Source of the DNA: Parcubacteria group bacterium GW2011_GWA2_40_23
GTDB lineage: Bacteria; Patescibacteriota; Patescibacteriia; UBA11705; JABHMO01
Length of the DNA stretch: 64,000 nt
Direction: 5' to 3'
NCBI GenBank assembly: GCA_000996245.1
Contig: LBYP01000002.1
Span: 5,352-69,351 of the forward strand
Within the stretch, counting starts at the first letter, position 1. Each line of letters starts with the position of its first letter. Under the pieces are notes generated by a model, which saw nothing but the letters and a program-made list of their open reading frames with translations, made no database searches and was not told the DNA's origin. Below, one piece after another: positions 5,101-62,660 of the stretch. A program made the translations under genes and the position numbers.

Positions 5101-6006
5101 ATGGCTCAAAGTGGTCACGCGACAACTGAAGTGCAAGAAATAGAAACTGCTCAAACAGAAGAGGCAGTTACGCTTGGTCACAATTCTACGGATGCAAAAA
5201 CAGAAGTTTCGCACGAAGCTACTTTAGCGGCAGAACCAATTGCTCATTTTGGTGCTTTCCCAATTACAAATTCTTTATTAAATACCTGGATAGTTGTCGC
5301 TATCCTTTTTGTTTTTGCCATTGTTTTACGATCTAAATTGAAAATAATTCCAAAGGGTTTGCAGAATCTATTTGAAATTGTAGTTGATGGTGCCTTGAAT
5401 CTGTGCGACTCAGTAACTAATGACCGCAAAAAAACCTTAAAAGTTTTTCCAATCGTTTTTAGTTTCTTTATATTCATTTTAATTGCTAATTGGATGGGTT
5501 TAGTCCCGGGAATTGGTTCAATCGGATTTATTGAAACTGAAGGAGCTCATAGTATTTTTGTCCCATATTTTCGTGGTGGTACGGCCGATTTAAATACAAC
5601 ATTAGCTTTAGCTTTGATTGCAGTTATTGGTTCGAATATTTTCGGTATTATAGCAGTGGGCGGCTGGAAGTATTTTAATAAATTTGTAAATCTAAAAATT
5701 TTGGCTCGAATCCCATTTACGATAAAAAAGGATCCAAGTGTCATCATTGTTAACCCTATTAAGTTTTTTGTGGGTATTATAGAAATTATCGGTGAAGTGG
5801 CAAAAATTGCTTCGCTCTCTTTTCGGCTTTTTGGAAATGTTTTTGCTGGCGAGGTTCTACTTTCATCATTAGCTGTTATTTTGGCCTTTGGATTACCAAT
5901 ACCTTTTATGTTTTTGGAAGTTATAGTAGGTGTTATTCAGGCATTAATATTTGGCATGTTGACTTTGGTTTATTTCAGCATTGCCATGACTGAAGAAGAA
6001 CATTAA
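5101..6006 (+). CDS. atpB: F0F1 ATP synthase subunit a
   Basis: Polytopic membrane protein with the conserved LSFRLFGNVFAGE arginine motif. Confidence 0.9.
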   Translation: MAQSGHATTEVQEIETAQTEEAVTLGHNSTDAKTEVSHEATLAAEPIAHFGAFPITNSLLNTWIVVAILFVFAIVLRSKLKIIPKGLQNLFEIVVDGALNLCDSVTNDRKKTLKVFPIVFSFFIFILIANWMGLVPGIGSIGFIETEGAHSIFVPYFRGGTADLNTTLALALIAVIGSNIFGIIAVGGWKYFNKFVNLKILARIPFTIKKDPSVIIVNPIKFFVGIIEIIGEVAKIASLSFRLFGNVFAGEVLLSSLAVILAFGLPIPFMFLEVIVGVIQALIFGMLTLVYFSIAMTEEEH

Positions 6007-6066
6007 TAAAGTGAGTAAGCTTGTAAGCTAGTAAGTGAAATAAGCAAGTCAAGGACTCGCTTGAAA

Positions 6067-6111
6067 CTTATCTCGTTTACCCTGCACCCAAAGGCAGTTT
6101 GTGGTGCGGGG
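6067..6111. repeat. 45-bp repeat copy 2 (inverted relative to 2185-2229)
   Basis: cttatctcgtttaccctgcacccaaaggcagtttgtggtgcgggg is the exact reverse complement of 2185-2229. Confidence 0.85.
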
Positions 6112-6163
6112 CTTACGGCTTATCTCGCTATAAAATAAGAGTGATAAACCAAGCAGACGTTAA

Positions 6164-6418
<255 letters not shown>

Positions 6419-6488
6419 TTTGTTCTTAGATTACTCTGCTCATTTGAGCAGGGTAGTAAAGAGTAAATTATAAAATATAAATATTTAT

Positions 6489-7004
6489 ATGGATGATTTA
6501 ATAAAAACATTTCACATCGATTGGAAATTACTTATTGCGCAAATAATTAATTTTGGCATTGTGGTGGTTGTTTTGGGCGTATTTGCTTTGAAGCCATTAA
6601 TTAAAATGATGAAAGAGAGGGAAGAAAAGATTTCTGATGGGATAAAACATGCCGAAGAAATGGAAGAAAAGATTAAGGAAGTTGCTAAACTTAAAGAAGA
6701 AGAAATAAAACAAGGGAGAAAAGAAGCTCAAGTTTTAATTGCACAGGCAGAAAAGAAAGCGGAAGATTTACGACAAGAAAAAATTAAAAAAACTATCACT
6801 GAAATTGAAAAAATGGCCATAGATGCTCGTGGTCGTATCCGTGAAGAACGTGACGAGATGATTAAGAGTGTCAAGGATGAACTCGGAGCTTTAATTGCAA
6901 CCGCTTTAAACCGGGTTATGAGTAATGTTATTTCAGAAAAAACACATACACAGGTAATTGATGATGTTATTAAAGATCTTGAAAAAGAAGCCATTACCAA
7001 ATAA
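6489..7004 (+). CDS. atpF: F0F1 ATP synthase subunit b
   Basis: N-terminal TM helix followed by a long charged coiled coil; operon position. Confidence 0.85.
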   Translation: MDDLIKTFHIDWKLLIAQIINFGIVVVVLGVFALKPLIKMMKEREEKISDGIKHAEEMEEKIKEVAKLKEEEIKQGRKEAQVLIAQAEKKAEDLRQEKIKKTITEIEKMAIDARGRIREERDEMIKSVKDELGALIATALNRVMSNVISEKTHTQVIDDVIKDLEKEAITK

Positions 7005-7006
7005 TT

Positions 7007-7549
7007 ATGTCCCAGACTTCTACAATTAAACATTATGCTACTGCCTTGGTGGAACTTGGTATTGAAAACCAATGTTATGAAGCTTTAGTGGCTGACTTAG
7101 TAGATGTTGATTCTAAGATCAATGAGAATTTAGAATTTAAAAAGTATTTAACCGACAAGCATGTAACTTTTACTAAAAAACAAGAAGCTTTAAAAAACAC
7201 TTTTCAGGATTTTATCAGCGATAAAACATATAATTTTTTATATTTATTGATTAAAGATGGAAAGCTTCTGGATTTATCATCAATATTAAAGATTGCCGCT
7301 AAAACACATTTAGAATCGCAGGATTTGTTTGAGGTTATGGTGGAATCAGTTATTCCTTTGACTGTAGCTCAGGAAAAGAAGATTCAAGAAAAATTGTCAC
7401 AAACGATTAAGCAAAAATTAATTACCAAAAATATAATTAATCCCGAAATTATCGGCGGTTTAAAAATTTTCTTAGGCGACACTGAGATAGATGGCAGTAT
7501 TCGCGGAAAAATTTTGCGACTAAAGAAAAAGATTGAGGATTACGAATAA
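7007..7549 (+). CDS. atpH: F0F1 ATP synthase subunit delta (OSCP)
   Basis: 180 aa; sits between atpF and atpA; C-terminal [22 protein letters not shown] motif. Confidence 0.8.
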
Positions 7550-7565
7550 ATTATCAAATAACAAT

Positions 7566-9104
7566 ATGGTACAAAAAAAAGACGATTACGTAATAGAAGC
7601 CTTAAAGAAACAAATTAATGAGTTCAAAGAACATGTATCAGTTGATACTGTTGGACGTGTTTTGGAAGTGGGCGATGGTATTGCCAAAATATCAGGACTT
7701 TCGAATGTTATGTATTCAGAAATGCTAGATTTTGGTTCTGGTGTCTTCGGTGTTGCTTTAAATCTTGAAGAGGATGCAGTCGGTGCCATGATTTTGGGTG
7801 ACTGGTTAAAGATTAAAGAAGGTGATGTCGTTAAAAGTACTGGACGTGTGTTGGAAGTTCCAGTGGGCGAGAATTTAATTGGACGTGTGGTTAACCCCTT
7901 GGGTGAAGCTATGGATGGCAAAGGAAAAATTGATTCAAAAATATTTTATCCAGTAGAAAAAATAGCGCCGGGTGTTATTACTCGAAAATCTGTAAATGTC
8001 CCAGTGCAAACTGGTATTAAAGCAGTTGATTCCATGATTCCAATCGGACGTGGTCAACGCGAACTTATTATTGGTGATCGTCAAACAGGCAAGACTGCCA
8101 TTGCTATTGATACAATTATCAACCAAAAAGGAAAAGATTTAATTTGTGTTTACGTTGCGATTGCTCAAAAGGAATCAAAGATTGCTAAGATTGTAGCCAA
8201 GCTCGAAGAAGCCGGTGCTATGGATCACACGATTATTGTTTTGGCGGGTGCTTCTGCTCCAACATCATTAAATTATATTGCGCCTTTTGCTGGTTGTGCC
8301 ATGGCAGAATATTTTATGGATAAGGGCAAGGATGTTTTAATAGTTTATGATGATTTATCAAAACATGCTGTAGCTTATCGCGAAATTTCATTGTTATTAC
8401 GCCGACCACCAGGACGTGAAGCTTATCCTGGAGATGTTTTCTATTTACATTCCAGATTATTAGAAAGATCCGCTCGCTTAGACAAGGAATATGGTGGTGG
8501 TTCTATTACTGCTTTGCCAATTATTGAAACTCAAGCAGGGGACATCTCTGCCTATATTCCCACAAATGTAATTTCAATTACTGATGGACAAATTTTCTTG
8601 GAAAGTGATTTGTTTTATCAGGGTATTCGTCCAGCGATTAATGTGGGTTTATCTGTTTCTCGTGTCGGTTCAAGCGCCCAAATTAAAGCTATGAAAAAAG
8701 TAGCTGGTAAATTACGTTTGGAGGTAGCGCAATATCGAGAATTGGCAGCCTTCGCTCAATTCGGTTCAGATTTAGATGAATCAACTAAGAATCAACTCGA
8801 ACGTGGTAAACGTATTGTTGAAATTTTGAAACAGGGTCAATACGTTCCAATGGCAGTTGAAAAACAAGTTGTGATTCTTTTTGCAGCAATTAAGGGATTA
8901 CTCGATAATGTTGATGTCAGCAAATTAAATGAATTTGAAATTGGTTTACATAATTATTTGGAAACTACAGTTCCAGAGATTTTGAAAGAAATTTTAGAGA
9001 AAAAAGAAATTGATGAAATGCTAGAAGCCAAAATCATTAAAACTATTAATGAATACAAGTCAACGGTAGAAGAACTATTGGTAAAAGCTGAGGCTGATGT
9101 TTAG
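7566..9104 (+). CDS. atpA: F0F1 ATP synthase subunit alpha
   Basis: Walker A GDRQTGKT. Start placed at ATG 7566 (MVQKKDDY...). The track start 7533 is a TTG overlapping atpH. Confidence 0.95.
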
Positions 9105-9216: not shown

Positions 9217-10170
9217 ATGGCTGGTGGAACAAGAGAATTAAAACGTCGTATCAAATCTGTTGCTAGTACTCAAAAGGTAACTAAGGCAATGGAAATGGTC
9301 GCTGCATCAAAAATGCGTCGCGCCATTAATTCGGTTTTGGCTACACGCGATTACTCTAATCTTGCTTGGGCGACTATTATGAACTTGGCACAAAGAACAG
9401 ACTCGGCTTTGCATCCATTATTAGCCAAAAAAGATAAAGTCGAAAGTGTTTGCTTGATTCTAATCAGTTCAAACCGTGGACTTTGCGGTGGATTTAATAT
9501 GCAAGTTGTTCAAAAGGCTATTAACTCAATCAAAAAACACGAAGAGAATGTTAAAGTTACAGATGTAATTACCATGGGAACAAAGGGCCGAGACATTATT
9601 CGTGGTTTTAAATTTAATGTTGCAGCTGATTTTAAAAAACAAGATTTAACTTTAAGAGTTTCCGATGTTTACGCAGTAGCTCATTTGATCATAAAAGATT
9701 TTACTTCTGGGAAATACGATAAAGTTTTTGTGGCTTTTACAGATTTTGTTTCAACTTTAAAGCAAGAACCGCGCGTTAAACAATTATTACCGATCGATCA
9801 AGAACCAGATGAATATCTTGGTGTAGTTGGAAAGAGTGCAGGCGTTGGTACTACAAAAAAGTTTATTCAAGCCAAAGCTGAAAAATATTTGAAAAAAGGC
9901 GAATATTCTTATGAATATGTTTTCGAACCTAATGCTAAAACTGTTTTAGAAGAAATGTTGCCACGTTTAATCGAAACTCAGATCTATCAGGCTGTTTTGG
10001 AATCTGAAGCATCCGAACACAGTGCCAGAATGTTCTCTATGCGCAATGCTTCTGAAGCTGCTTCGGACATGATTAGCGATTTATCATTATCATATAACCG
10101 TGCTCGTCAAGCTGGTATTACGCAGGAAATTGCGGAAATCAGTTCTGCGGCTGAATCTTTAAAAAAATAA
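9217..10170 (+). CDS. atpG: F0F1 ATP synthase subunit gamma
   Basis: N-terminal LKRRIKSVxSTQKVTKAMEMVAASKMRRA and C-terminal ITQEIAEI motifs. Confidence 0.9.
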   Translation: MAGGTRELKRRIKSVASTQKVTKAMEMVAASKMRRAINSVLATRDYSNLAWATIMNLAQRTDSALHPLLAKKDKVESVCLILISSNRGLCGGFNMQVVQKAINSIKKHEENVKVTDVITMGTKGRDIIRGFKFNVAADFKKQDLTLRVSDVYAVAHLIIKDFTSGKYDKVFVAFTDFVSTLKQEPRVKQLLPIDQEPDEYLGVVGKSAGVGTTKKFIQAKAEKYLKKGEYSYEYVFEPNAKTVLEEMLPRLIETQIYQAVLESEASEHSARMFSMRNASEAASDMISDLSLSYNRARQAGITQEIAEISSAAESLKK

Positions 10171-13533: not shown

Positions 13534-13637
13534 CATATAAATATCAATTGTCTAGTAGAGGAGAATATGGATAATTTGTAATTCGTAAAATAATGTTTAA
13601 ATTTAGCTAAAATAAGTAAGTGTCCATATGATTCCTG

Positions 13638-13666
13638 TTGACAAACATAAGAAAGTATGTTATTGT
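13638..13666 (+). promoter_or_regulatory. Sigma70-type promoter of island B
   Basis: TTGACA (13638-13643), 17-nt spacer aacataagaaagtatgt, TATTGT (13661-13666). Confidence 0.6.
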
Positions 13667-13705
13667 TATGGCAATTGAACCTGTGCTACAACGATGGAGG
13701 AATCC

Positions 13706-13990
13706 ATGGATCTGATCGGATTGGACATGAAGGCTCGTCAGGCTCGGGAGAAGTTCACGGTCGTGACCAAGCTGGGTGATGCGGTCTGGACGCCGGCGGA
13801 GATCAACCGACTGGTGCACCAGTACAGAACCATCATCAGCACGCTTCCCAGGATGCCCTCCGTCGCGATTCTCGCGGGAGAGTACTCCAAGGACCAGCTC
13901 GTCGCGTTCCTCGGGACGGACAACTTCACCGTCGAGCTGATGGTCGGTCGCCAGAACCCCAAGCTGCCGTTCAGCGCTCCGATGCTCTGA
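13706..13990 (+). CDS. Island B1: 94-aa GC-rich protein of unknown function, paralog of B2
   Basis: GGAGGA ends 4 nt before ATG 13706. G/C-ending codons dominate. About 45% identity to B2 over ~67 aa (KFTVVT..G..VW..E..RL....PR..SVAI.AGE.SK...V..LGTD.F.VEL.V). Confidence 0.7.
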   Translation: MDLIGLDMKARQAREKFTVVTKLGDAVWTPAEINRLVHQYRTIISTLPRMPSVAILAGEYSKDQLVAFLGTDNFTVELMVGRQNPKLPFSAPML

Positions 13991-14020
13991 GCGCGGCAAG
14001 TTCGAAAGAGAGGAACGGAC

Positions 14021-14248
14021 ATGCTGGTTCTGTTGACTCCTGCCAAGTTCACCGTCGTGACCTTGTTCGGTTTTGGGGTGTGGCATAAGGACGAGGTTCA
14101 ACGTCTGGCGAACAGGCTGAGAGCCTGCGTCTACACGTATCCAAGGAGGCTTTCGGTCGCGATCATCGCGGGAGAGCACTCCAAGGCTTCGATCGTGGAC
14201 GTCCTCGGTACGGACGACTTCGGCGTCGAGCTGAAGGTCAAGTGCTAG
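14021..14248 (+). CDS. Island B2: 75-aa GC-rich protein, paralog of B1
   Basis: AGAGAGGAA SD-like motif 5-6 nt before ATG 14021; same conserved blocks as B1; followed directly by terminators. Confidence 0.7.
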   Translation: MLVLLTPAKFTVVTLFGFGVWHKDEVQRLANRLRACVYTYPRRLSVAIIAGEHSKASIVDVLGTDDFGVELKVKC

Positions 14249-14282
14249 AAACCAGTCACTCAAGGTTTCAAGAGGCGAGCAG

Positions 14283-17396: not shown

Positions 17397-18377
17397 CTAG
17401 TTGGTGAGCACGTGGCTGATGTCCATGTCCGGACTGACGATCAGCTTCTGTGCCGTGTTCTCGCCGATGACCTCGATCGCCTCGTTCGGACCCGTACCCA
17501 GGTTCGGGATGAACCCGATCTGGATGTACGAGTACTGCTCGAGGGGATCGACGTCGCAGCGCACGTCGAAGGCCGTCGTGGTGCCCTTGGGTAGGAAGAT
17601 GTCCGTCAGGTCATGGAAGACGAGCTGCGCGTTCCATCCCTCGGTGTTTACGTAGGGTTGACCCTGGTAGGCCAGGGTGTGGCCACCCGAGATCAGGCTG
17701 CAGTTGCGCACCTTCTCGAAGTGGTCCCCGGTCATCATCATCGACAGCGTGACCTCGGTGAGAACGCCGTCCTCGGCGTAGGCCGTGTCTTCGGCGTCGA
17801 CCATCAGGTAGAACGTGAACAAGTGGACCTGCGAACCTTCGACGAGCAGGTTGCTGGTTTCCTTCTTCCAGACCATGACGGTCGAGAATTGCGGCTCCAT
17901 GTACGGCGCGCAGACTTCTTCGACGGAGCAGTAGAACGTACGGTTGCCCCTGGCGATGGCGTCGTAGAAGGCTTGGAAGTTGCTGTGCCAGACGTTCATC
18001 ATCGCGATCTGCTTCTGCGCCGCGATCCGTCGCAGCTTGTAGGTCGGGATCATGGCGATGGGGTATTTGGGGTCTCCCGCCAAGGCCAGCTTGATCTTCC
18101 AGGTGTTGGTCGTCGCGTTCTGCGTCGCCTTGGCCAGGAACTGGCCCTCGTACTGGAAGTAGTAGCTGATGTTGTCGGTGAAGTTGGTCCACCCGACGCA
18201 GTCGGTGCCGTACCAGTCCGGCAACTGGCCGGTCAGGTTGAAGTAGTCGATGCTTTCCTGGTTGTACGTCTCGGCGACGTACTTGAGGTCGGCGAAGGTC
18301 TGGGGCGGACCGCCCCCGGCGTACGCGGCACTCGAGAAGCACAGGACGGCGAGCAGGGCGATGAGGGTCTTCTTCAT
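17397..18377 (-). CDS. Island C: secreted 326-aa GC-rich protein of unknown function
   Basis: Signal peptide MKKTLIALLAVLCFSSAAYA. GGAGGA lies 7 nt before the ATG. Near-exclusive NNC/NNG codon usage (checked codon by codon). Several Cys residues; no motif I can name. Confidence 0.8.
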   Translation of the reverse strand: MKKTLIALLAVLCFSSAAYAGGGPPQTFADLKYVAETYNQESIDYFNLTGQLPDWYGTDCVGWTNFTDNISYYFQYEGQFLAKATQNATTNTWKIKLALAGDPKYPIAMIPTYKLRRIAAQKQIAMMNVWHSNFQAFYDAIARGNRTFYCSVEEVCAPYMEPQFSTVMVWKKETSNLLVEGSQVHLFTFYLMVDAEDTAYAEDGVLTEVTLSMMMTGDHFEKVRNCSLISGGHTLAYQGQPYVNTEGWNAQLVFHDLTDIFLPKGTTTAFDVRCDVDPLEQYSYIQIGFIPNLGTGPNEAIEVIGENTAQKLIVSPDMDISHVLTN

Positions 18378-18740: not shown

Positions 18741-19364
18741 CTAGAAGTTCCAGACCAGGCGCAGGTACAGCACGTGGTCACCCGCGATCTCCGGCGTGAA
18801 GTCGTAGGCGACCCAGATTCGGCCCGCGCCGAGCAAGATCGAGGGGCCGATGGCCGCCTCGTCGAACGTCTTCTCGGAGAAGAAGTTCTCCTGGACGATG
18901 CCGAACCCAGCGATGTTGCCTGGCTTCATCCAGTCGAGGGTGGTCAGCGTGTAGTAGTTCCGCTGCACGTGCCCCTTGTCGCCGTCGACAGGGAAGTAGA
19001 CGTCGCCCTCGACGCACAGGAGCAGGTCGCTTGGCAAGGGCTGCGTGAGCCAGATGCTCGCGAGAGCGGACATGCCGCCGTCGTTGGTCATCCAGAGACC
19101 TCCCAGGAGCTTGAGGTTCGTCTTCGTCGACAGGACGCTCATCTCCGGCCCGAAGTAGCCGAAGATCATGGAGTTGCCGCGCATTGACACCAGGCCGGTG
19201 GCGTGGGCGTAGATGCCGCCCGTGATGTTCTCGCTGAGCGTGAACGGGGAGAAGGTTCGGCCCAGGGTGACCAGGAACTGGCCGTTGGACTCGACCTTGG
19301 CCTCGGCGGCCGTGGGGATGATCATCGCACACAGCAACAGGATCACGAGCAGGAAGCGCTTCAT
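18741..19364 (-). CDS. Island D: 207-aa secreted protein with outer-membrane beta-barrel-like features
   Basis: Start placed at MKRF (ATG 19364) with GGAGG 5 nt upstream. Signal peptide MKRFLLVILLLCAMIIPTAAEA. Gly/aromatic-rich alternating pattern. C-terminus YLRLVWNF has hydrophobic residues at positions -1, -3, -5, -7 and a terminal Phe (classical OMP beta-signal). Confidence 0.7.
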   Translation of the reverse strand: MKRFLLVILLLCAMIIPTAAEAKVESNGQFLVTLGRTFSPFTLSENITGGIYAHATGLVSMRGNSMIFGYFGPEMSVLSTKTNLKLLGGLWMTNDGGMSALASIWLTQPLPSDLLLCVEGDVYFPVDGDKGHVQRNYYTLTTLDWMKPGNIAGFGIVQENFFSEKTFDEAAIGPSILLGAGRIWVAYDFTPEIAGDHVLYLRLVWNF

Positions 19365-19409
19365 CGAAGCCTCCAAAGTGGTGTGACGTCCCGTGAAACA
19401 GGACATTCT

Positions 19410-19438: not shown

Positions 19439-19762
19439 ATGCAAGGCATTAGTGGTATACTAAAATCAACTTTCAATAAAAGAAGTGTCCTCAGCAAACA
19501 AGTGCAATCTGGGATGATTGTTGAGTTTGTTAATGAACTAATTCATGAATACTGGGGCAAAAAGGGCGCTGAACAGGCAAAGGCTAAATTTATAAAAAAT
19601 AAAATTTTAACTATATTTACTGTAAATGCAGGCATGTCGCAGGAAATTAAATTTAAACAAAATAAAATATTAGAAACAGTTAACACTAGGTTTGATGAGC
19701 GGGTACTTAATCAATTAAAAATCGTTGCCGGCGGAATTGACAAAGGCGATGATATACCGTAA
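19439..19762 (+). CDS. DUF721/DciA-like small protein (host-type composition except the last ~13 codons)
   Basis: 107 aa with pattern W..VVG-like EYWGKKGAEQAKAKFIKNKILTIFTVNAGMSQEIKF, typical of DUF721. The 3' end, GTTGCCGGCGGAATTGACAAAGGCGATGATATACCGTAA, is GC-richer and contains the island E -35 box. Confidence 0.5.
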   Translation: MQGISGILKSTFNKRSVLSKQVQSGMIVEFVNELIHEYWGKKGAEQAKAKFIKNKILTIFTVNAGMSQEIKFKQNKILETVNTRFDERVLNQLKIVAGGIDKGDDIP

Positions 19763-19765
19763 AAC
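19737..19765 (+). promoter_or_regulatory. Candidate promoter of island E embedded in the 3' end of the DUF721 gene
   Basis: TTGACA (19737-19742), 17-nt spacer aaggcgatgatataccg, TAAAAC (19760-19765, overlaps the stop codon). Confidence 0.45.
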
Positions 19766-19797
19766 GAAGTGATGGCCTTTCCATCAAGGAGGTTCCC

Positions 19798-20115
19798 ATG
19801 GATGCACGACAAAAGGTCGTGGCAGTGTTCGATCTTCCGCACGGTGAAGGTCAGGTCGATCTGATGGTCGACATGGCACTTGAGTCCAGCTGGACTGGCC
19901 AAGGAATCGATACTTCGTACTTCATGTTCCACAAGCCGCACTGCGGCGGTCCCATGCGGCCGATCAAGGTGGCGGACAAGAAGATGGTTCTGTACTGCAG
20001 CGGTTGCGTGTTGCGTCTTCAGCTTCTGATCATGAAACTGCCTACGAACCTGGGCGAACTCGGTGAAGCGATCAACGAGACCTGCACGCATTCGGATCTG
20101 CCCTCACGTTTCTAA
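19798..20115 (+). CDS. Island E: 105-aa GC-rich protein with Zn-ribbon-like Cys/His spacing
   Basis: AAGGAGG lies 5 nt before the ATG. HKPHCGGP ... YCSGC (H/C-x..-CxxC). G/C-ending codons. Confidence 0.7.
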   Translation: MDARQKVVAVFDLPHGEGQVDLMVDMALESSWTGQGIDTSYFMFHKPHCGGPMRPIKVADKKMVLYCSGCVLRLQLLIMKLPTNLGELGEAINETCTHSDLPSRF

Positions 20116-43420: not shown

Positions 43421-44956
43421 TTAAGATAAGAAGTCGAGGGCTTTTTGAATCCGAGCTAATGTTTTATCTTTCCCTAGCGCAGAAGCTAGTTCAAACGGTC
43501 CTGGTGATTTGTCTCGACCAGAAAGAGCATAGCGCAAAGGCCACAGAATTGAACCAGTATCAAGGTTGTTTTGTTGAATCAAGGCCTTGAGATCAACCTC
43601 TATTTTTTCTGAGTTGAATGATTCGTCTTTTAAATCTTGAAAATATTGTAAGAGAAGTTTTAAATTCACTTTTGTTTGTTCTTTGTCGGATTTCTTCCAG
43701 ATCAAATTCTCTGCAGGATATCCAAGATTGTTACTAAGCATAAAGCCAATCGCCTCTGGTAAGTCACTTAACTTTTTAATGCGACTCTTTTCGAGGGCTA
43801 AAATGCGGTTCAATTCAGTTGGTTTAATGCTCTCCCCTGTTTCGTTAATAACAATTTTATTGTCAGAAAAAGTCAAAAGTTCAGCTTTTTCTAAATATGG
43901 TTTGGCCAGTTCTAGGAATTTTGCTTCTGAAGATTCGCGAATATAAATGCCATTAATCCAATCTAATTTATCGACGTCGAAAACAGCACCTGCTTTATGA
44001 ACATTATCAAGTGAAAATTGATTAATAAGTTCATCGAAAGTATAAACTTCTTGTTCTGTGCCGGCGTTCCAGCCGAGTAAGGCAATAAAGTTCAAAAGAG
44101 CTTCTTTTAAATAACCAGATTCAACAAAATCAGAAACACTTGAATCTCCGTCGCGTTTGCTAAGCTTTTTGCGTTGTTTGTTTAATAATTGTGGTAAATG
44201 TGCGAATTGGGGCATTTGCCAACCAAAAGCTTCATACAATAAAACATGTTTGGGTGTGCTGGCAATCCATTCGTCTCCACGCATAACTTGAGTTATTTTC
44301 ATCAAATGATCATCAACAATATTGGCAAAGTGATAAGTTGGGAAATTATCTGCTTTCATTAAAACATAGTCATCGAGGTTCTTGGTATTAAAAATAATTT
44401 CGCCACGAATTAAATCATCACAAATTACATCTTTATTTTCGGGCATGCGGAAACGAATAACATGCGGTGCCCCCTGTTTTAAAAGCGTTTGAACTTCATC
44501 TTTAGATAAATCTCGACATAAATTATCGTATTTGGGTGCCAGTTTATTTTTAACCTGATCTTCGCGTAAAGTTTCCAGTCTTTCTTTACTGCAAAAACAA
44601 TAATAGGCTTTATTTTTGTCTAATAAATCTTGTATATGTTGTTGATAGATGTCTAGTCGCTGTGATTGCGTATAAGGTCCAAAATCACCTTTTTCCTTGA
44701 CCTTGCCATCTTTTGTGAGGTATGGACCTTCATCACCCGAAATATTAGCCCATTCAAGGACTTTAAGTAAATTTTCTACTGCTCCTGGCACTTTTCTTGT
44801 TTGGTCTGTGTCTTCGATTCTAATTAAAAAATTACCTTTATAATGTTTAGCAAAAAGAAAGTTATAAAGAATGGTTCTTAGGTTGCCAATATGAACAAGT
44901 CCTGTTGGGCTTGGAGCAATACGAACGCGTACATTTTGAGTATTAAGTTTTTCCAT
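43421..44956 (-). CDS. gltX: Glutamyl-tRNA synthetase
   Basis: RIAPSPTGLVHIGN (HIGH-type) and KLSKRDG (KMSKS-type) motifs. Confidence 0.95.
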   Translation of the reverse strand: MEKLNTQNVRVRIAPSPTGLVHIGNLRTILYNFLFAKHYKGNFLIRIEDTDQTRKVPGAVENLLKVLEWANISGDEGPYLTKDGKVKEKGDFGPYTQSQRLDIYQQHIQDLLDKNKAYYCFCSKERLETLREDQVKNKLAPKYDNLCRDLSKDEVQTLLKQGAPHVIRFRMPENKDVICDDLIRGEIIFNTKNLDDYVLMKADNFPTYHFANIVDDHLMKITQVMRGDEWIASTPKHVLLYEAFGWQMPQFAHLPQLLNKQRKKLSKRDGDSSVSDFVESGYLKEALLNFIALLGWNAGTEQEVYTFDELINQFSLDNVHKAGAVFDVDKLDWINGIYIRESSEAKFLELAKPYLEKAELLTFSDNKIVINETGESIKPTELNRILALEKSRIKKLSDLPEAIGFMLSNNLGYPAENLIWKKSDKEQTKVNLKLLLQYFQDLKDESFNSEKIEVDLKALIQQNNLDTGSILWPLRYALSGRDKSPGPFELASALGKDKTLARIQKALDFLS

Positions 44957-45074
44957 AATTTATGTAAATTTCATCAACATTATAGTCTATTTTGAGCAAC
45001 AAGTAAATGACAGTCAAGGTCAACGAATATATTGGCTAAATTTATTTAAAATATTGACATATCGTTTGAAGGGG

Positions 45075-45103
45075 TTGACAAAATTGTAATTATTTGCTAT
45101 TAT
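45075..45103 (+). promoter_or_regulatory. Sigma70-type promoter of island G
   Basis: TTGACA (45075-45080), 17-nt spacer aaattgtaattatttgc, TATTAT (45098-45103); ~110-nt leader. Confidence 0.7.
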
Positions 45104-45220
45104 TACCTGTTATTCAAGTGTTTACCTTAGCTTTTTGAGGCTGAGTTAATTTCCGCCTTTTAAAGGTGTAGTGAACACCACAAGTGATCTGTTCCCCAAC
45201 CATCCGTGAGGAGGTGCCTG

Positions 45221-46735
45221 ATGCTGTACCAGAAACTGCTCGATGCGAAGATCGGAGTCGGTCCGGCCACCATCACCAAGCTCGACGAGGCGGGTCTCAA
45301 GACCGCCGAGGCCATCCTGGCCGCCGGGCTCGACGGGCTGCGCGCCATCAAGGTCTTCCCGCCGATCGCGGGCAAGATCCTCGAGGTCGCGCTCGCCAAC
45401 CCGACGCCCGCCACCGAGATCGAGGCCGCGTCGGCCCCGATCATCCTCCACCCCGACGACGCGGCCAAGGTGGCCGAGGTCGCCCCCACCACCACGAAAA
45501 ACGAGACCCCCGCGGTCCTGGTCAAGCGGCAGACGGTGTTCGCCGCCAAGCTCGAGGAGGCCGCCAAGGCCAACGGTACGACGGTGGAGGAGCTCCGCGC
45601 CGCCGCCAAGGCCAACGTGCCGGCCGAGAAGCCGGTCGTGGTGACCCACAAGACCCTGGCCAAGCCCGAGAACGAGCACGTGAACTTCATCGACGTCGGG
45701 ATCGAAACCCCGACCGAGTTCACGAGCCCCGTGCGTCTGCGCGACTTCTTCGACAAGCTGCCCAAGGGGCAGGTGCCGGACAGCGCGCGCTACATCAAGA
45801 ACCTCTTCCCCGTCTGCGCGATGTGTCGCGCCGCGGGCAGCACGAAGACCCTCCAGATCGACCACGTGCACGTGCTCGTGGTCACCCGTCTCGACGGCAG
45901 CGTCAACAGCGGTTTGTTCTGCGACGACCACATCACGGTGGCGTACGGACAGGCCAAGGACCTGGTCAAGGACGGGAAGCTGAAGGAGGTCAAGATCATC
46001 TGGCTGCGCGAGGCGTGGGCCAACCTGACCCGCGCGTACAGGGCGCAGGTCGACGAGGCGCGCGAAGAGCGCTACCGCAAGGAGCGCGCCGACCGCCGCA
46101 CGGCCGCCCTCCGGGCCGTGATGGAGGATCTCGGCTCGGTGACCAGCGAGCACTGGATGACCGACGAGCAGCTCGGCAGCTACGTGTCGCCCATGGACGT
46201 CCCGGTCTTCACGTGCGGACTCGAGGCGAAGCAGGCCCGTGAGCTGCACCTCCTGCCCAACGACAAGGAGAAGGGTACGTTCAAGGGGCGCTGGGGGCGG
46301 TTCTACGACGAGTACGGCATCCGGCTCGTCATGCGGCCCCCGCAGGACCTGACCCAGCACAACACGCTCGTCCAGCACTTGCGGGACGACGCCAAGGCCG
46401 CCCAGGCCACGCCGTTCTTCCCCGTCGTCCTGGTCCGCCGTTACTTCGGTGACGACCTGGGCTGGCGCTACCTGGCGATCCACGAACTGGTCATCGAGGA
46501 GTTCGTGGCGACCTACGAGCAGGCGCACAACTTCAAGGTGCGCACCGGGGCCATGGCCTACGAGTGGCTGACCCGTCGCTGGGAGGTCCAGCGCGAAGAA
46601 GCCGCCAAGGCCGCGGCGCAGGCGTTCGCCAAGAGCGACGAAGGCAAGGCGCTGAACGCCTTCCTCAACGCCGCCCCGGACGACGAGGCCGCCGCCGACA
46701 GCGCCCTGTTGGCCGGCAGCGCCCACAAGAAGTAA
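45221..46735 (+). CDS. Island G: 504-aa GC-rich protein with N-terminal helix-hairpin-helix pair and a CxxC..DH..N..CxxH (HNH-like) motif
   Basis: GAGGAGG lies 6 nt before ATG 45221. HhH-like KIGVGPATITKLDEAG and LRAIKVFPPIAGKILE. Cys/His motif VCAMCRAAGSTKTLQIDHVHV...VNSGLFCDDH (nt 45815-45931). Strong G/C third-position bias only in this frame. Confidence 0.75.
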   Translation: MLYQKLLDAKIGVGPATITKLDEAGLKTAEAILAAGLDGLRAIKVFPPIAGKILEVALANPTPATEIEAASAPIILHPDDAAKVAEVAPTTTKNETPAVLVKRQTVFAAKLEEAAKANGTTVEELRAAAKANVPAEKPVVVTHKTLAKPENEHVNFIDVGIETPTEFTSPVRLRDFFDKLPKGQVPDSARYIKNLFPVCAMCRAAGSTKTLQIDHVHVLVVTRLDGSVNSGLFCDDHITVAYGQAKDLVKDGKLKEVKIIWLREAWANLTRAYRAQVDEAREERYRKERADRRTAALRAVMEDLGSVTSEHWMTDEQLGSYVSPMDVPVFTCGLEAKQARELHLLPNDKEKGTFKGRWGRFYDEYGIRLVMRPPQDLTQHNTLVQHLRDDAKAAQATPFFPVVLVRRYFGDDLGWRYLAIHELVIEEFVATYEQAHNFKVRTGAMAYEWLTRRWEVQREEAAKAAAQAFAKSDEGKALNAFLNAAPDDEAAADSALLAGSAHKK

Positions 46736-46757
46736 CGTTCAACAACGTTCGTAGCCG

Positions 46758-46795
46758 CCTCCCGAGGACTCATTTCTCGGGGGGCGCTTTTTTTT
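46758..46795 (+). terminator. Terminator of island G; its T-tract runs into the -35 box of island H
   Basis: CCTCCCGAG-N9-CTCGGGGGG followed by CGCTTTTTTTT. The last Ts are the first bases of TTGACA at 46794. Confidence 0.7.
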
Positions 46796-46822
46796 GACAA
46801 ATATACACCTGAACTCTATGAT
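46794..46822 (+). promoter_or_regulatory. Sigma70-type promoter of island H
   Basis: TTGACA (46794-46799), 17-nt spacer aatatacacctgaactc, TATGAT (46817-46822). Confidence 0.7.
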
Positions 46823-46855: not shown

Positions 46856-47473
46856 ATGAATGCGAAACATCTTCCTCCGCCCACTCCCACGACGCTCTCC
46901 GAAGCGTTTTGGCCCCTGTTCATGACGAACAAAGTGATGGTGCGTTTTGTCGGTGCGTATATCTGCTTCGGCGTGGCAGATGACAGCAACCGACTACTCG
47001 TAGTGTATGCACACGACACTGCCAGCCGATTGCATCTTCCTACACAGGAAGCAATTGCTCGAGCGTTCCCTCTGCGGAATGCCAAACAACAAGAATACAC
47101 CGGACCACATGATCTGCCAGTGTCGTACAGTGACATTCAACGAGTTCGCAACGTGATGCGTTATGAGTTTCTTCAGGAAAACCGGCGCGTCTTACTGCTT
47201 GTTTCGACTCCTGAGGAGTCGGTAGTTGAAAACCAGGAACAACTCATGTTCATCCAATGGAGTAGACCGAACCCACTTCAAATTGCTCGCATCGTCGAAA
47301 CTATTGGTGCGGATCGTGTCCACGTCGTACGAAAAAATGCGCTGGAAACGCGCCTCCTGGTGGAGTTGAAACCCAATGAACGATTGAAGTTCTCTGTGAC
47401 CGGTTGCCACTTCAGCAGCCCCTTTGCAACTGCGGCTCTGTTGCCGGTGCAGTGCGACACCTGCACTGCTTGA
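46856..47473 (+). CDS. Island H: 205-aa protein of unknown function (intermediate GC)
   Basis: AAGGAG lies 6 nt before the ATG. Bounded by its own promoter and terminator. No recognisable motif. C-terminal Cys pair CDTC. Confidence 0.65.
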   Translation: MNAKHLPPPTPTTLSEAFWPLFMTNKVMVRFVGAYICFGVADDSNRLLVVYAHDTASRLHLPTQEAIARAFPLRNAKQQEYTGPHDLPVSYSDIQRVRNVMRYEFLQENRRVLLLVSTPEESVVENQEQLMFIQWSRPNPLQIARIVETIGADRVHVVRKNALETRLLVELKPNERLKFSVTGCHFSSPFATAALLPVQCDTCTA

Positions 47474-47477
47474 AAAT

Positions 47478-47518
47478 AAGCCAGCCTTGATCCTCGAATC
47501 TTGGCTGGCTTTCTTTTT
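47478..47518. terminator. Terminator after island H, shared with the convergent wecG-NUDIX gene
   Basis: AAGCCAGCC-N16-GGCTGGCTT followed by TCTTTTT; A-rich on the other side. Confidence 0.7.
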
Positions 47519-47529
47519 ACAAAATAAAT

Positions 47530-48735
47530 CTAAATTTCATCAATAAATTTTTTGGTAAATTCTTGTCGAACCGGATGTAATAGTTTTAATAGTTCATCTT
47601 TTTTGACCCACTTGATGGCAGCGACTTCCCTATTTGGTCGGAATTGATTTGAGTCGATAGCCCCGCTATATTCTACTAAAAATGCAATTTGCTTTTGTCC
47701 TTTGTACCCATGAAGTAATTGATAATGTTTTGGTGAGATATAGGCATGTTCTGCCTTAATTCTTTTAACTACTTTCATCTTATCTAATTCGAATCCGAGC
47801 TCTTCATTAATTTCACGCAGGATTGCAATCTCAATATTCTCGTTTTTATCAACGCCGCCTTGTGGAAATTGCCAGTGATTGGGAAGATGAGCATTTTCTT
47901 GAATTAAATATAGACCGTCTTTGTTTTTTATAACGCCGAGAACATTGGCACGATATTCTGTTTTAATTCTTTTAGCCCATTTATGACATTCTAAAAGAAA
48001 ATCTGCGGTGGCATGTTTAATGCGCATCAACCTTTTTGGTTCTTGATAAAGTCTAAAGAGCCATTCCATTCCCAGTTCTTGCATTAACTTTGGCGCGCGC
48101 TTTATCTTGCCTGATAAAAAATCAAAAGATCCCCCGACACCCAATGCTATTCTGACTGATGATCCATACCCCTTATCCCCTATCCCTTTTCCCAAATTGT
48201 TTTCAATCCACTCCTCTTGTTCTGGCGCACCCAAACAGACAAACAATACTTGAGTTTGATGCTTTTTGATTTTGTCCAAAAGAACTTTATCAGCGATTGG
48301 AGTTTTAGCGGATAAAGCACATCCAAGTTTAACTTGAGGATATGAATTATCGAAAAACTTTTTTAGGTCCTCAAGCGTTGTTAGCGAATCGTTTCGTAGA
48401 AGTACAAAAACACGAGCCGAGTTGTTTTGGCCTAATAGTTCGCGCGTGAAGTCAGCGCCTGTGACTCGGTTTTTTAAATCTGTTCCAAGTATTTTGGCAC
48501 CGAGTTTGAGCCCAAAGCCATCTGGCAAATTTAAGTCTGCCGAGTTCAATGTGTCTTTGTATTCTTCCGAGCTTGCAGCTTTTAAGCAGATTTCTGGGTT
48601 GGGCGTATAAACGCTATGGGGAGCATCCGAGGCCATGAACTCCCTGGTTTTTTCAAGAAAATATTCCAAAGGCTGGTCGTCTATTTTAACGCCAAGAATT
48701 ATCGCTTTGTTTTGTAGGTCTTTGGGGACGTTCAT
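47530..48735 (-). CDS. Fusion protein: WecG/TagA/CpsF-family glycosyltransferase + C-terminal NUDIX hydrolase
   Basis: GAPEQEEWI ... GVGGSFDFLSGKIKRAP ... GMEWLFRL (WecG/TagA motifs), then NUDIX box GGVDKNENIEIAILREINEELG. Start at MNVPKDL (48735), because the track extension overlaps the clpB promoter. Confidence 0.8.
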   Translation of the reverse strand: MNVPKDLQNKAIILGVKIDDQPLEYFLEKTREFMASDAPHSVYTPNPEICLKAASSEEYKDTLNSADLNLPDGFGLKLGAKILGTDLKNRVTGADFTRELLGQNNSARVFVLLRNDSLTTLEDLKKFFDNSYPQVKLGCALSAKTPIADKVLLDKIKKHQTQVLFVCLGAPEQEEWIENNLGKGIGDKGYGSSVRIALGVGGSFDFLSGKIKRAPKLMQELGMEWLFRLYQEPKRLMRIKHATADFLLECHKWAKRIKTEYRANVLGVIKNKDGLYLIQENAHLPNHWQFPQGGVDKNENIEIAILREINEELGFELDKMKVVKRIKAEHAYISPKHYQLLHGYKGQKQIAFLVEYSGAIDSNQFRPNREVAAIKWVKKDELLKLLHPVRQEFTKKFIDEI

Positions 48736-48809
48736 AATGTTTTGATACTTGTGGGTAAACAAGAACAATATAGCAGATTTTTGCTTAAATTTAAATAACA
48801 CCACTAGAT

Positions 48810-48837
48810 TTGACAAATTATGGCTATCCCCTATAAT
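48810..48837 (+). promoter_or_regulatory. clpB promoter
   Basis: TTGACA (48810-48815), 16-nt spacer, TATAAT (48832-48837). Confidence 0.65.
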
Positions 48838-62318: not shown

Positions 62319-62660
62319 CTACGCAGCTGCAACGATTTTCTTGATTTTTCGACGCAGTTCAATCGCATCGAAAGGCTTGGTGACCACTTCGTCGGGTTGC
62401 TCGGCACAAGAGAAGTGTTCTGGCGGGGCGCTTGAAACCATGATGATGCGAGCATCAGGGCAAAGTCGTCGTGCGTAGACGATGAACTCGGCTCCCGTCA
62501 TTCCAGGCATGTCGTGGTCTGTGACAATGACCCGGGCTGAGCGACCGCTAAGGCATTTTAAGGCCTCGAATGGTGAATGATGCGTTCGGTGTGGCAAAGT
62601 ACCAGCAACAGCCTTGAATAGAGCTAGATTCTCTGGCAGATCATCAACGAAAAGCACCAT
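62319..62660 (-). CDS. Island I: stand-alone CheY-like response-regulator receiver domain (113 aa)
   Basis: VLFVDD acidic pair, VIVTDHDMPGMTG phospho-acceptor Asp context, IIMVSS, TKPF lysine. AGGGAG lies 7 nt before the ATG. GC-rich codons. Confidence 0.8.
   Translation of the reverse strand: MVLFVDDLPENLALFKAVAGTLPHRTHHSPFEALKCLSGRSARVIVTDHDMPGMTGAEFIVYARRLCPDARIIMVSSAPPEHFSCAEQPDEVVTKPFDAIELRRKIKKIVAAA

Follow-up and report, generated by a model that had tools for sequence, protein, structure and literature searches.

Genes and features of the G-H locus

The window analyzed here is a 64,000-nucleotide (nt) stretch of contig LBYP01000002.1 from a tiny groundwater bacterium, Parcubacteria group bacterium GW2011_GWA2_40_23, and all positions refer to it. 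The genome is A+T-rich, with a G+C content of about 0.36 and a third-codon-position G+C content (GC3) of about 0.28 in housekeeping genes, and the window holds sharply bounded islands with a G+C content of 0.64 to 0.70, against about 0.36 around them. We investigated the island that carries gene G, a 504-amino-acid open reading frame (ORF) in the program-made ORF list, together with the gene downstream of it, H. An earlier note, made from the sequence letters, had described G as an orphan protein that combines helix-hairpin-helix (HhH) motifs with an HNH-like signature, and had compared the two genes to a defense or selfish-nuclease module. The ORF, motif, promoter, leader and terminator positions given there were all reproduced, and the observation of a 504-amino-acid gene with these motifs is confirmed as real. 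The locus comprises the following features.

45075-45103, forward strand: sigma-70-type promoter of G, TTGACA, 17 nt, TATTAT, with a TGC extended -10; 11 of 12 consensus positions
45104-45220, forward strand: A+T-rich 5' leader of G, about 110 nt, containing a hairpin (45118-45178) and GAGGAGGTG (45208-45216)
45221-46735, forward strand: gene G, 504-amino-acid protein; overall G+C 0.68, GC3 0.95; orthologues found
46756-46796, forward strand: intrinsic terminator of G, a 13-bp stem (46756-46786) with nine G-C pairs followed by a T8 run
46794-46822, forward strand: promoter of H, TTGACA, 17 nt, TATGAT, overlapping the T-run of the G terminator
46856-47473, forward strand: gene H, 205 amino acids; G+C 0.52, GC3 0.54; invariable downstream partner of G
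47473-47521, forward strand: terminator-like hairpin after H, an inverted repeat (47473-47491/47498-47516) followed by a T-run

The G+C content at the three codon positions of the G frame was 0.67, 0.42 and 0.95, indicating that 45221-46735 is the coding frame, and conservation of the protein across about 10 lineages provided further coding evidence. We assigned the start of G to the ATG at 45221, since a Shine-Dalgarno sequence, GAGGAGGTG, lies 4 nt upstream of it and since indels in relatives disrupt the frame of a possible GTG extension further upstream. Two overlapping ORFs, one antisense of 526 amino acids (45146-46726) and one of 352 amino acids in the +2 frame, were rejected as genes: both are by-products of the GC3 of 0.95, and their own third-position G+C content is 0.66.

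Six promoter-like sites were found in the region, compared to 0.7 expected. Across seven lineages the -35 element TTGACAAA and the -10 element TTTGCTAT(A/T)AT of the G promoter were invariant. The leader was nearly 100% identical between the window, L001 and L003, a conservation exceeding that of synonymous sites in the flanking genes, which differ by 32 to 42%. The length of about 110 nt that had been noted for this leader was confirmed, and within it we found a long, conserved hairpin at 45118-45178 (forward strand). It has 23 pairs, 5 of which show compensatory changes across five lineages, and 89.5% of its cells are paired, compared to 41 to 56% in slid controls. With five sequences only, this covariation is suggestive but not proven; the hairpin may be a cis-regulatory RNA element. 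Rfam gave no match in the window at gathering thresholds nor in the G leader at E ≤ 1. The terminator of G is kept in L001 and L002. Its T-run overlaps the -35 box of the consensus promoter of H, and G and H are separate transcription units, each with its own consensus promoter and terminator.

Wherever a lineage has sufficient flanking sequence, the genes are arranged as M23 peptidase, gltX, G, H (201 to 209 amino acids), wecG/NUDIX and clpB, and the adjacency of G and H seen in the window is strict. H forms 9 clusters among 5.8 billion proteins and is identical to the NCBI entry "hypothetical protein UT32_C0009G0049" from Parcubacteria group bacterium GW2011_GWC2_39_14. No family or solid defense match was found for H in Pfam, PHROG, NCBIfam and PADLOC, and none by sequence in PDB. 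According to the ORF list and a tRNA search, there is no integrase, tRNA or mobility gene near the pair. The neighboring gene at 47530-48816 (reverse strand) encodes a WecG/TagA-type glycosyltransferase fused to a NUDIX hydrolase; this fusion is conserved in the clade and corresponds to two separate genes in Candidatus Falkowbacteria L017. A 30-nt imperfect direct repeat (83% identical; 44948-44977 and 47514-47543) brackets G and H and overlaps the start of gltX and the stop of wecG/NUDIX. The repeat may have been left by an insertion long ago, or it may be a random match in A+T-rich DNA.

G and H co-diverge with their host

A word-indexed search of 5.8 billion proteins returned, besides G, a single protein of 65% identity. 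HMMER, run exhaustively on 1.84 billion representative proteins, returned 8 G clusters, and tblastn on fetched loci added orthologues in L013 and L084. The family is known from about 10 lineages, only in Parcubacteria near Kuenenbacteria and Falkowbacteria. The label "orphan" is therefore nearly right, in that G has no named relative, though not in the sense of a protein without homologues, as 8 clusters and about 10 lineages exist. A tblastn search with G as query gave no match among 50,697 phage records, no relative was found in a scan of IMG/VR, and a scan of GTDB genomes with a two-sequence G alignment, whose patterns were too specific, also found no relative.

The frame of G is intact at L084 8217-9539 (reverse strand), L086 7189-8544 (reverse strand) and L087 8169-9413 (forward strand), where public gene calls take the antisense or wrong frame. 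The family is thus under-counted, and the antisense calls leave it nearly invisible, in protein databases. More generally, the G+C-rich genes in these genomes are mis-annotated in a systematic way and lacking from such databases. The 87-kb metagenome contig L003 (Ga0247841_10000661) ends after 144 nt of G (locus end 10001-10144), and most other G-bearing contigs are only 1.6 to 5.6 kb long, suggesting that assemblies tend to break at the G+C jump.

Neighboring loci in further genomes were reached via GltX similarity. Among the nearest GTDB genomes, the GltX identity was 82% for L013, 67% for L014 (Candidatus Kuenenbacteria) and 61 to 63% for L015 and L017 (Candidatus Falkowbacteria). L013 (CAZMEQ010000005.1) is labeled "uncultured Gammaproteobacteria bacterium" yet is the closest GTDB relative and has the synteny of the Candidate Phyla Radiation (CPR) as well as the G/H island; this label is probably a mislabel. 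At the position of G beside gltX, L014 and L017 carry G+C-rich ORFs (5928-7649, reverse strand, 573 amino acids, GC3 0.80; and 6059-7237, reverse strand, 392 amino acids, GC3 0.84). These were rejected as G homologues, as a default hmmsearch found nothing and a search with filters off reached 6.7 bits to the C-terminal module only, and we treated them as positional analogues of G. The L014 protein contains two copies of a "...VVVTRYFRREG..AVVHRDD...W.LRK..FFDP" module, which at these 6.7 bits is weakly like the C-terminal module of G. Homology to H was detectable for the H-like gene of L014, with tblastn E values of 4e-9 to 7e-11.

The identity to the window proteins was as follows.

GltX identity to the window (%): L001 94, L004 91, L013 82, L005 73, L011 72 (L006, no value)
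G identity to the window (%): L001 67, L004 41, L013 40, L006 34, L005 32, L011 30
H identity to the window (%): L001 85, L013 53, L006 46, L005 35, L011 32 (L004, no value)

The identity ranks of G, H and GltX agree, which supports vertical co-divergence with the host. These data show that the pairing of G and H is ancient, that it is passed on vertically and that its place between gltX and wecG/NUDIX is fixed in this Parcubacteria clade.

We then compared nonsynonymous (dN) and synonymous (dS) substitutions per site between the window and L001.

G: dN 0.28, dS 0.47, dN/dS 0.59
H: dN 0.08, dS 0.45, dN/dS 0.18
Flanking genes: dN 0.012-0.084, dS 0.9-1.6, dN/dS 0.01-0.05

Compared to its neighbors, G changes 3 to 20 times faster in protein sequence and 2 to 3 times slower at synonymous sites. 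Within G, dN/dS against L001 was about 1 in the N-terminal tandem HhH domain, or (HhH)2 domain, described below, and 0.4 in the C-terminal half.

Architecture of the G protein

The protein was divided into four parts by profile searches and an AlphaFold model, whose local confidence is given as the predicted local distance difference test (pLDDT).

45242-45400, forward strand: N-terminal (HhH)2 domain, RadA/Rad51-N type, residues about 8-60; profile matches and four predicted helices
45401-45715, forward strand: variable disordered linker, Ala/Pro/Thr/Lys-rich, residues 61-165
45815-45970, forward strand: optional zinc site, predicted knuckle, beta-hairpin and helix (treble-clef-like); ligands C199, C202, C234 and H237
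45971-46666, forward strand: ordered C-terminal region, residues about 251-482, pLDDT 80-94

The two HhH strings of G, KIGVGPATITKLDEAG (residues 10 to 25) and LRAIKVFPPIAGKILE (residues 40 to 55), had been read as DNA-binding elements, and family profiles bore this out. Indeed, the G-family profile matched residues 31 to 89 of Rad51 in 1pzn (E = 2.5e-4) as well as 1szp and 1b22 (E up to 6e-3) and several Rad51 chains (E about 5e-3), HHH_5 (PF14520) matched five of nine family members (best E 3.3e-5), and the NCBIfam RadA N-terminus matched P0004 and P0006. The GVGP hairpin (G12, G14) and the second HhH motif, around G36...A50, are invariant in the seven full-length members, and helices are predicted at residues 2-8, 15-23, 29-42 and 47-59. 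Judged by these profile matches, the N-terminal 60 or so residues are a genuine RadA/Rad51-N-type (HhH)2 domain. As in the RadA/Rad51 N-terminal (HhH)2 domain (HHH_5, PF14520), two HhH motifs are found in about 55 N-terminal residues; unlike RadA/Rad51, G has no RecA-type ATPase core and its remainder matches nothing. Searching PDB sequences with the G-family profile gave nothing significant beyond the (HhH)2 domain.

The Ala/Pro/Thr-rich stretch that follows had likewise been recognized as a linker, and the model agrees, with residues 61 to 165 predicted to be disordered (pLDDT below 50 at residues 60 to 105 and 132 to 153). It is the least conserved part of G, carries indels and has a dN/dS of 0.84. 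It encloses a conserved helix-turn-helix-like patch at residues 106 to 131 ("LE.AA..NGTTV..LR").

The mean pLDDT of the AlphaFold model was 73.8, with residues 190 to 480 at 80 to 94; a model built from a two-sequence alignment (pLDDT 49) was discarded. The C-terminal region is the best conserved part of the family and contains a predicted 43-residue helix (262 to 304), helical and beta-hairpin elements, "GWRYLVVHE" and "WLTRR" motifs and, at its end, a conserved acidic tail (EGKAL..FL...DDE..AD..LL). No fold match, nuclease or other, was found for the model in PDB or BFVD, the two sets to which fold novelty is limited. Thus, beyond a generic DNA-binding domain, the G family is without known relative, as is its fold within PDB and BFVD, and an ordered C-terminal region of 300 residues is without match among the solved structures in PDB. 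Residues 190 to 280 were considered as an internal repeat of the C-terminal beta-hairpin-helix unit at 385 to 470, and this was rejected (hhalign probability 0.2, E 0.3).

Between the linker and this region, the string VCAMC...DH...N...CDDH spans residues 198 to 237 (nt 45815-45931), exactly where it had been placed, and includes three of the four Cys residues of the protein. Around it, strands at 216-223 and 228-234 and a helix at 235-250 are predicted with a pLDDT of 80 to 92. Of 10 lineages, 6 (the window, P0002, P0003, P0004, P0005 and L013) have all of C199, C202, C234 and H237, and the other 4 (P0006, P0007, P0008 and L084) have none of them, the knuckle loop being deleted. The quartet is present or absent as a block and is therefore a real zinc-site signature; in sequence, CxxC...CxxH fits a predicted structural, dispensable zinc site. 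In treble-clef fingers, a zinc knuckle gives two ligands and is followed by a beta-hairpin; the other two ligands come from where strand 2 ends and from the first helical turn. The predicted layout of C199/C202 and C234/H237 is the same, and residues ~198 to 250 are best described, on the model, as a treble-clef-like knuckle, hairpin and helix with optional zinc. The likeness is one of predicted layout; no treble-clef protein was among the fold-search matches for G.

A similar order of elements is found in RecR, in which an HhH motif is followed by a Cys4 zinc finger. Like RecR, G has an N-terminal HhH DNA-binding element and, after it, a predicted structural zinc finger, as part of a scaffold of the DNA-repair type that is not a nuclease; it differs from RecR in having no Toprim domain, in being 2.5 times longer and in its long disordered linker. 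Pfam and NCBIfam gave no RecR match for G.

Across the seven full-length members, only Gly, Pro, Leu, Ala, Trp, Phe, Tyr, Arg, Lys and Thr occur at invariant positions, and the absence of Asp, Glu, His, Cys and Ser from these positions argues against a conserved catalytic centre in G.

G as a candidate DNA-associated tethering protein

The reading that we favor, with a probability of roughly 50%, is that G is a lineage-specific, most probably non-enzymatic DNA-associated tethering protein that is genomically linked to H and whose synonymous sites are held almost entirely at G or C. In known relatives, HhH2 domains bind the DNA backbone without sequence specificity. By analogy with this behavior, the HhH2 module would tether the C-terminal domain of G to double-stranded DNA. 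G would probably tether a partner as well, for which H, by adjacency only, is the obvious candidate. The Cys2-Cys-His zinc site may stabilize the knuckle-hairpin-helix unit in about half of the lineages, the others having lost the site, and the conserved acidic and hydrophobic C-terminal tail looks like a docking peptide.

Several observations weigh against this reading. The separate transcription units make a physical partnership of G and H only a guess. The very high dN/dS of G, about 1 in HhH2, could also reflect relaxed constraint. The window protein alone scores 15 bits against HHH_5, below the Pfam cut-off of 27, and the (HhH)2 assignment depends on the family profile, not on this single protein. 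The AlphaFold model rests on only 7 sequences, with a pLDDT of 41 to 68 in the N-terminal domain, and the lack of an invariant catalytic residue is drawn from about 10 sequences with an alignment that is uncertain in places. The window orthologue alone has gained a "DHVH" beside the zinc site, a curious coincidence with the endonuclease VII motif.

It is also conceivable, although we consider it rather doubtful, that G and H form a conflict system (anti-phage, anti-plasmid or host-interaction), with G as a DNA sensor or anchor engaged in an arms race and H as the effector. The strict adjacency of the two genes, their strong stand-alone promoters and the very fast evolution of G, in particular of its DNA-binding domain, would suit such a role. 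Moreover, H weakly matched "effector endonuclease" models, namely the PADLOC "Effector" model (E 0.0099) and the NCBIfam retron Eco8 effector (E 0.23). However, the weak matches, among them a 35-residue PADLOC match to PDC-M01B (E 0.001) in one G member only, are limited to single members, P0004, P0006 and P0008 had no PADLOC match, and no solid match was found in PADLOC, Pfam or PHROG. The locus is not patchy or mobile, as defense islands are, but lies fixed between the same housekeeping neighbors in all lineages and is inherited vertically; no homologue turned up in phage, virus or plasmid-like settings, and no conserved catalytic residues were recognized in G or H. For the mobile two-gene defense or selfish module that the earlier note had suggested, the absence of a solid PADLOC match, the fixed and vertical chromosomal locus and the separate transcription units all speak against it.

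G remains G+C-rich in an A+T-rich host

The GC3 of G in eight lineages was 0.95, 0.95, 0.93, 0.95, 0.97, 0.93, 0.85 and 0.77, compared to 0.17 to 0.35 in the flanking genes and 0.45 to 0.63 in H across lineages. At four-fold degenerate sites, 95% of the bases of G are G or C (1% A, 4% T), and 97% of the NNY codons end in C and 91% of the NNR codons in G. The G+C content climbs within about 60 nt of the start codon and drops right after the terminator. The G+C-rich stretch has the same extent as the coding sequence, with the promoter, the spacers and the greater part of the leader remaining A+T-rich.

We compared this persistence with a simple two-state neutral model, in which GC3 falls to 0.50 or less after 0.45 substitutions per site and lineage. 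Both lineages are still at 0.95, and the anomaly thus appears to be actively maintained and is explained neither by recent transfer nor by slow amelioration. We infer that the composition of G reflects selection or another gene-specific directional force on the coding sequence and is not a trace of recent transfer. Since G+C is also raised at the first and second codon positions, a directional force on the whole sequence and selection at the codon level are indistinguishable in these data. In the literature on G+C-rich genes and codon usage in CPR/Patescibacteria, Kuenenbacteria and Falkowbacteria, of which few subscription papers were covered, we found no description of the phenomenon.

As to the cause of this composition only, a neutral by-product, either of GC-biased gene conversion at a hot spot or of a gene-targeted AT-to-GC mutator, appears unlikely. 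The rise at first and second positions (0.67/0.42 versus 0.50/0.30) and the Ala/Arg/Pro/Gly-rich protein are what whole-sequence directional pressure would yield, the G+C-rich genes also evolve unusually fast, and several unrelated genes of the window have the same composition trait. Against this, the G+C-rich stretch tracks the coding sequence and leaves the promoters, the leader and the spacers between islands A+T-rich, and the dS of G is lower than that of the flanks, not higher. The GC3 shift of +0.67 is also far beyond any that is known to be attributed to biased conversion in bacteria. If selection is the cause, G would offer an unusually clean and testable example, among bacteria, of synonymous composition under selection, from a radiation (CPR) that is little understood, and the composition would mark strongly promoted, rapidly evolving proteins likely relevant to the lifestyle of these organisms.

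The nuclease question

The signature of G invites a further reading, in which the window orthologue would be an active endonuclease VII-like (His-Me/HNH) nuclease whose zinc site holds a beta-beta-alpha-metal finger, with D214, H215, H217 and N229 as catalytic residues. We consider this very unlikely. The motifs of T4 endonuclease VII come in the order CxxC, then DHDH, then CxxC-N, and window G has the string C-x2-C-x11-DHVH-x16-C-x2-H, with a spacing apparently near that of the T4 enzyme. As in T4 endonuclease VII/HNH proteins (PF02945), a CxxC...CxxH/C zinc site flanks a beta-hairpin and helix, here predicted at the motif position, and in window G alone a DHxH string lies between the ligand pairs. 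Sub-threshold profile matches point the same way: Endonuclease_7 (PF02945) scored 12.5 bits against window G (cut-off 23.6, E 0.15; residues 198 to 223 only), and two PHROG endonuclease VII families matched it below significance (E 0.2 and 0.6).

However, the putative catalytic residues are not conserved in the family. The nine other lineages have G, Q, E, D, T, K, E, T and T at the position of H215 and, at that of H217, F, M or W as a buried core residue of the predicted strand beta1, so that both His residues are found only in the window protein; even the 67%-identical orthologue has Gly at 215 and Phe at 217. N229 is common to P0003 only, with T, R, V, S, I or L in the other lineages, and the zinc site is wholly missing in 4 of the 10 lineages. 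The Endonuclease_7 match, at half of the cut-off score, was obtained with one of nine family members, the window protein. The catalytic histidine of the HNH fold stands at the end of strand beta1, whereas the "DH" of G precedes the predicted beta1 (216-223) and is thus out of register with it, and there was no structural match to any His-Me nuclease in PDB or BFVD.

Profile and structure searches thus found no nuclease, and the motif residues vary among homologues, the two outcomes that had been named beforehand as speaking against the idea; G was therefore rejected as a nuclease. As judged from the alignment and the predicted structure, G is not a nuclease. The zinc-type CxxC...CxxH signature of the earlier note stands, with its predicted beta-hairpin and helix; the HNH nuclease finger that had been seen in it does not. 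For annotation, this means that the tempting call of HhH plus HNH as a nuclease or defense protein is wrong and that a false label can be kept from spreading.

Comparison with horizontally acquired islands

Anomalous G+C content is a textbook sign of recent transfer, and the composition of foreign genes should, with time, approach that of their host. That the island was recently brought in from a donor of high G+C content, such as an actinobacterium or a phage of one, with G as cargo, is nonetheless highly improbable: the sharp compositional jump (0.32 to 0.69 G+C), the actinobacterial look of the codon usage and the direct repeat flanking the pair would fit, but G lies at the same site in about 10 lineages with a divergence that follows gltX down to 30% identity, keeps a GC3 of 0.77 to 0.97 in all of them, has a host-like, conserved promoter and leader and no integrase, tRNA or mobility gene nearby, and has no homologue outside the clade among the 1.84e9 representatives, the GTDB genomes (close-pair patterns) and the phage and viral sets. 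Patchy presence, incongruent phylogeny and amelioration, the traits of recent transfer, were not what we observed, as the identity ranks follow GltX and GC3 is unchanged.

The G island shares with horizontally acquired islands a sharp compositional discontinuity and the encoding of orphan proteins. Unlike them, it occupies one fixed locus, co-diverges with the host and has no mobility genes; it is not ameliorated although the synonymous sites of the flanks are saturated, and it is delimited by ORFs that stand behind host-type promoters.

Other G+C-rich genes in the window

The window contains about nine G+C-rich ORFs. Perfect TTGACA-N(15-19)-TAnnAT sites occur 10 times in the 64 kb, and 5 of them lie directly upstream of G+C-rich ORFs, compared to 1.55 expected by chance. 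A second G+C-rich pair, at 18741-19406 (reverse strand, GC3 0.92) and 17397-18377 (reverse strand, GC3 0.91), encodes two orphan proteins with signal peptides. Its orthologues, at L082 560-1198 and 1363-2355, have about 45% identity, a GC3 of 0.90 to 0.91 and A+T-rich spacers. The second pair thus keeps a GC3 of about 0.9 in L082, and the compositional anomaly is therefore a property of a class and not special to G. The pair of the G island and at least one more have kept a GC3 near 0.9 during co-divergence, down to 30% protein identity, with a host that is A+T-rich.

We tentatively propose, as a possibility and not as the expected outcome, that G belongs to an undescribed class of Parcubacteria genes, namely fast-evolving orphans, each behind a consensus promoter, whose coding sequences alone would have kept a nearly saturated GC3 of 0.8 to 0.97 over very long times in genomes with a GC3 of about 0.28. 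If so, base composition itself would be a selected, regulatory property, and a regulon would be defined by composition instead of a shared operator. This could take the form of transcripts that escape an A/U-directed RNase, of reading that depends on the state of the tRNA pool, or of very stable mRNA folds.

Within the second pair, the gene at 18741-19406 (reverse strand) encodes a 221-amino-acid signal-peptide protein that ends in ...YLRLVWNF. This resembles the C-terminus of an outer-membrane beta-barrel, an unexpected feature in a CPR bacterium with a presumed single membrane. The window also contains further islands of intermediate G+C content (0.52 to 0.56) at 327-806, 994-1269, 13607-14263, 19711-20091 and 62319-62660, all on the reverse strand. 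The first four had no Pfam match at E ≤ 0.1; 62319-62660 encodes a stand-alone response-regulator receiver domain (Pfam E 3e-9). Consensus promoters at 986-1014 and 1274-1302 lie just upstream of the islands at 327-806 and 994-1269.

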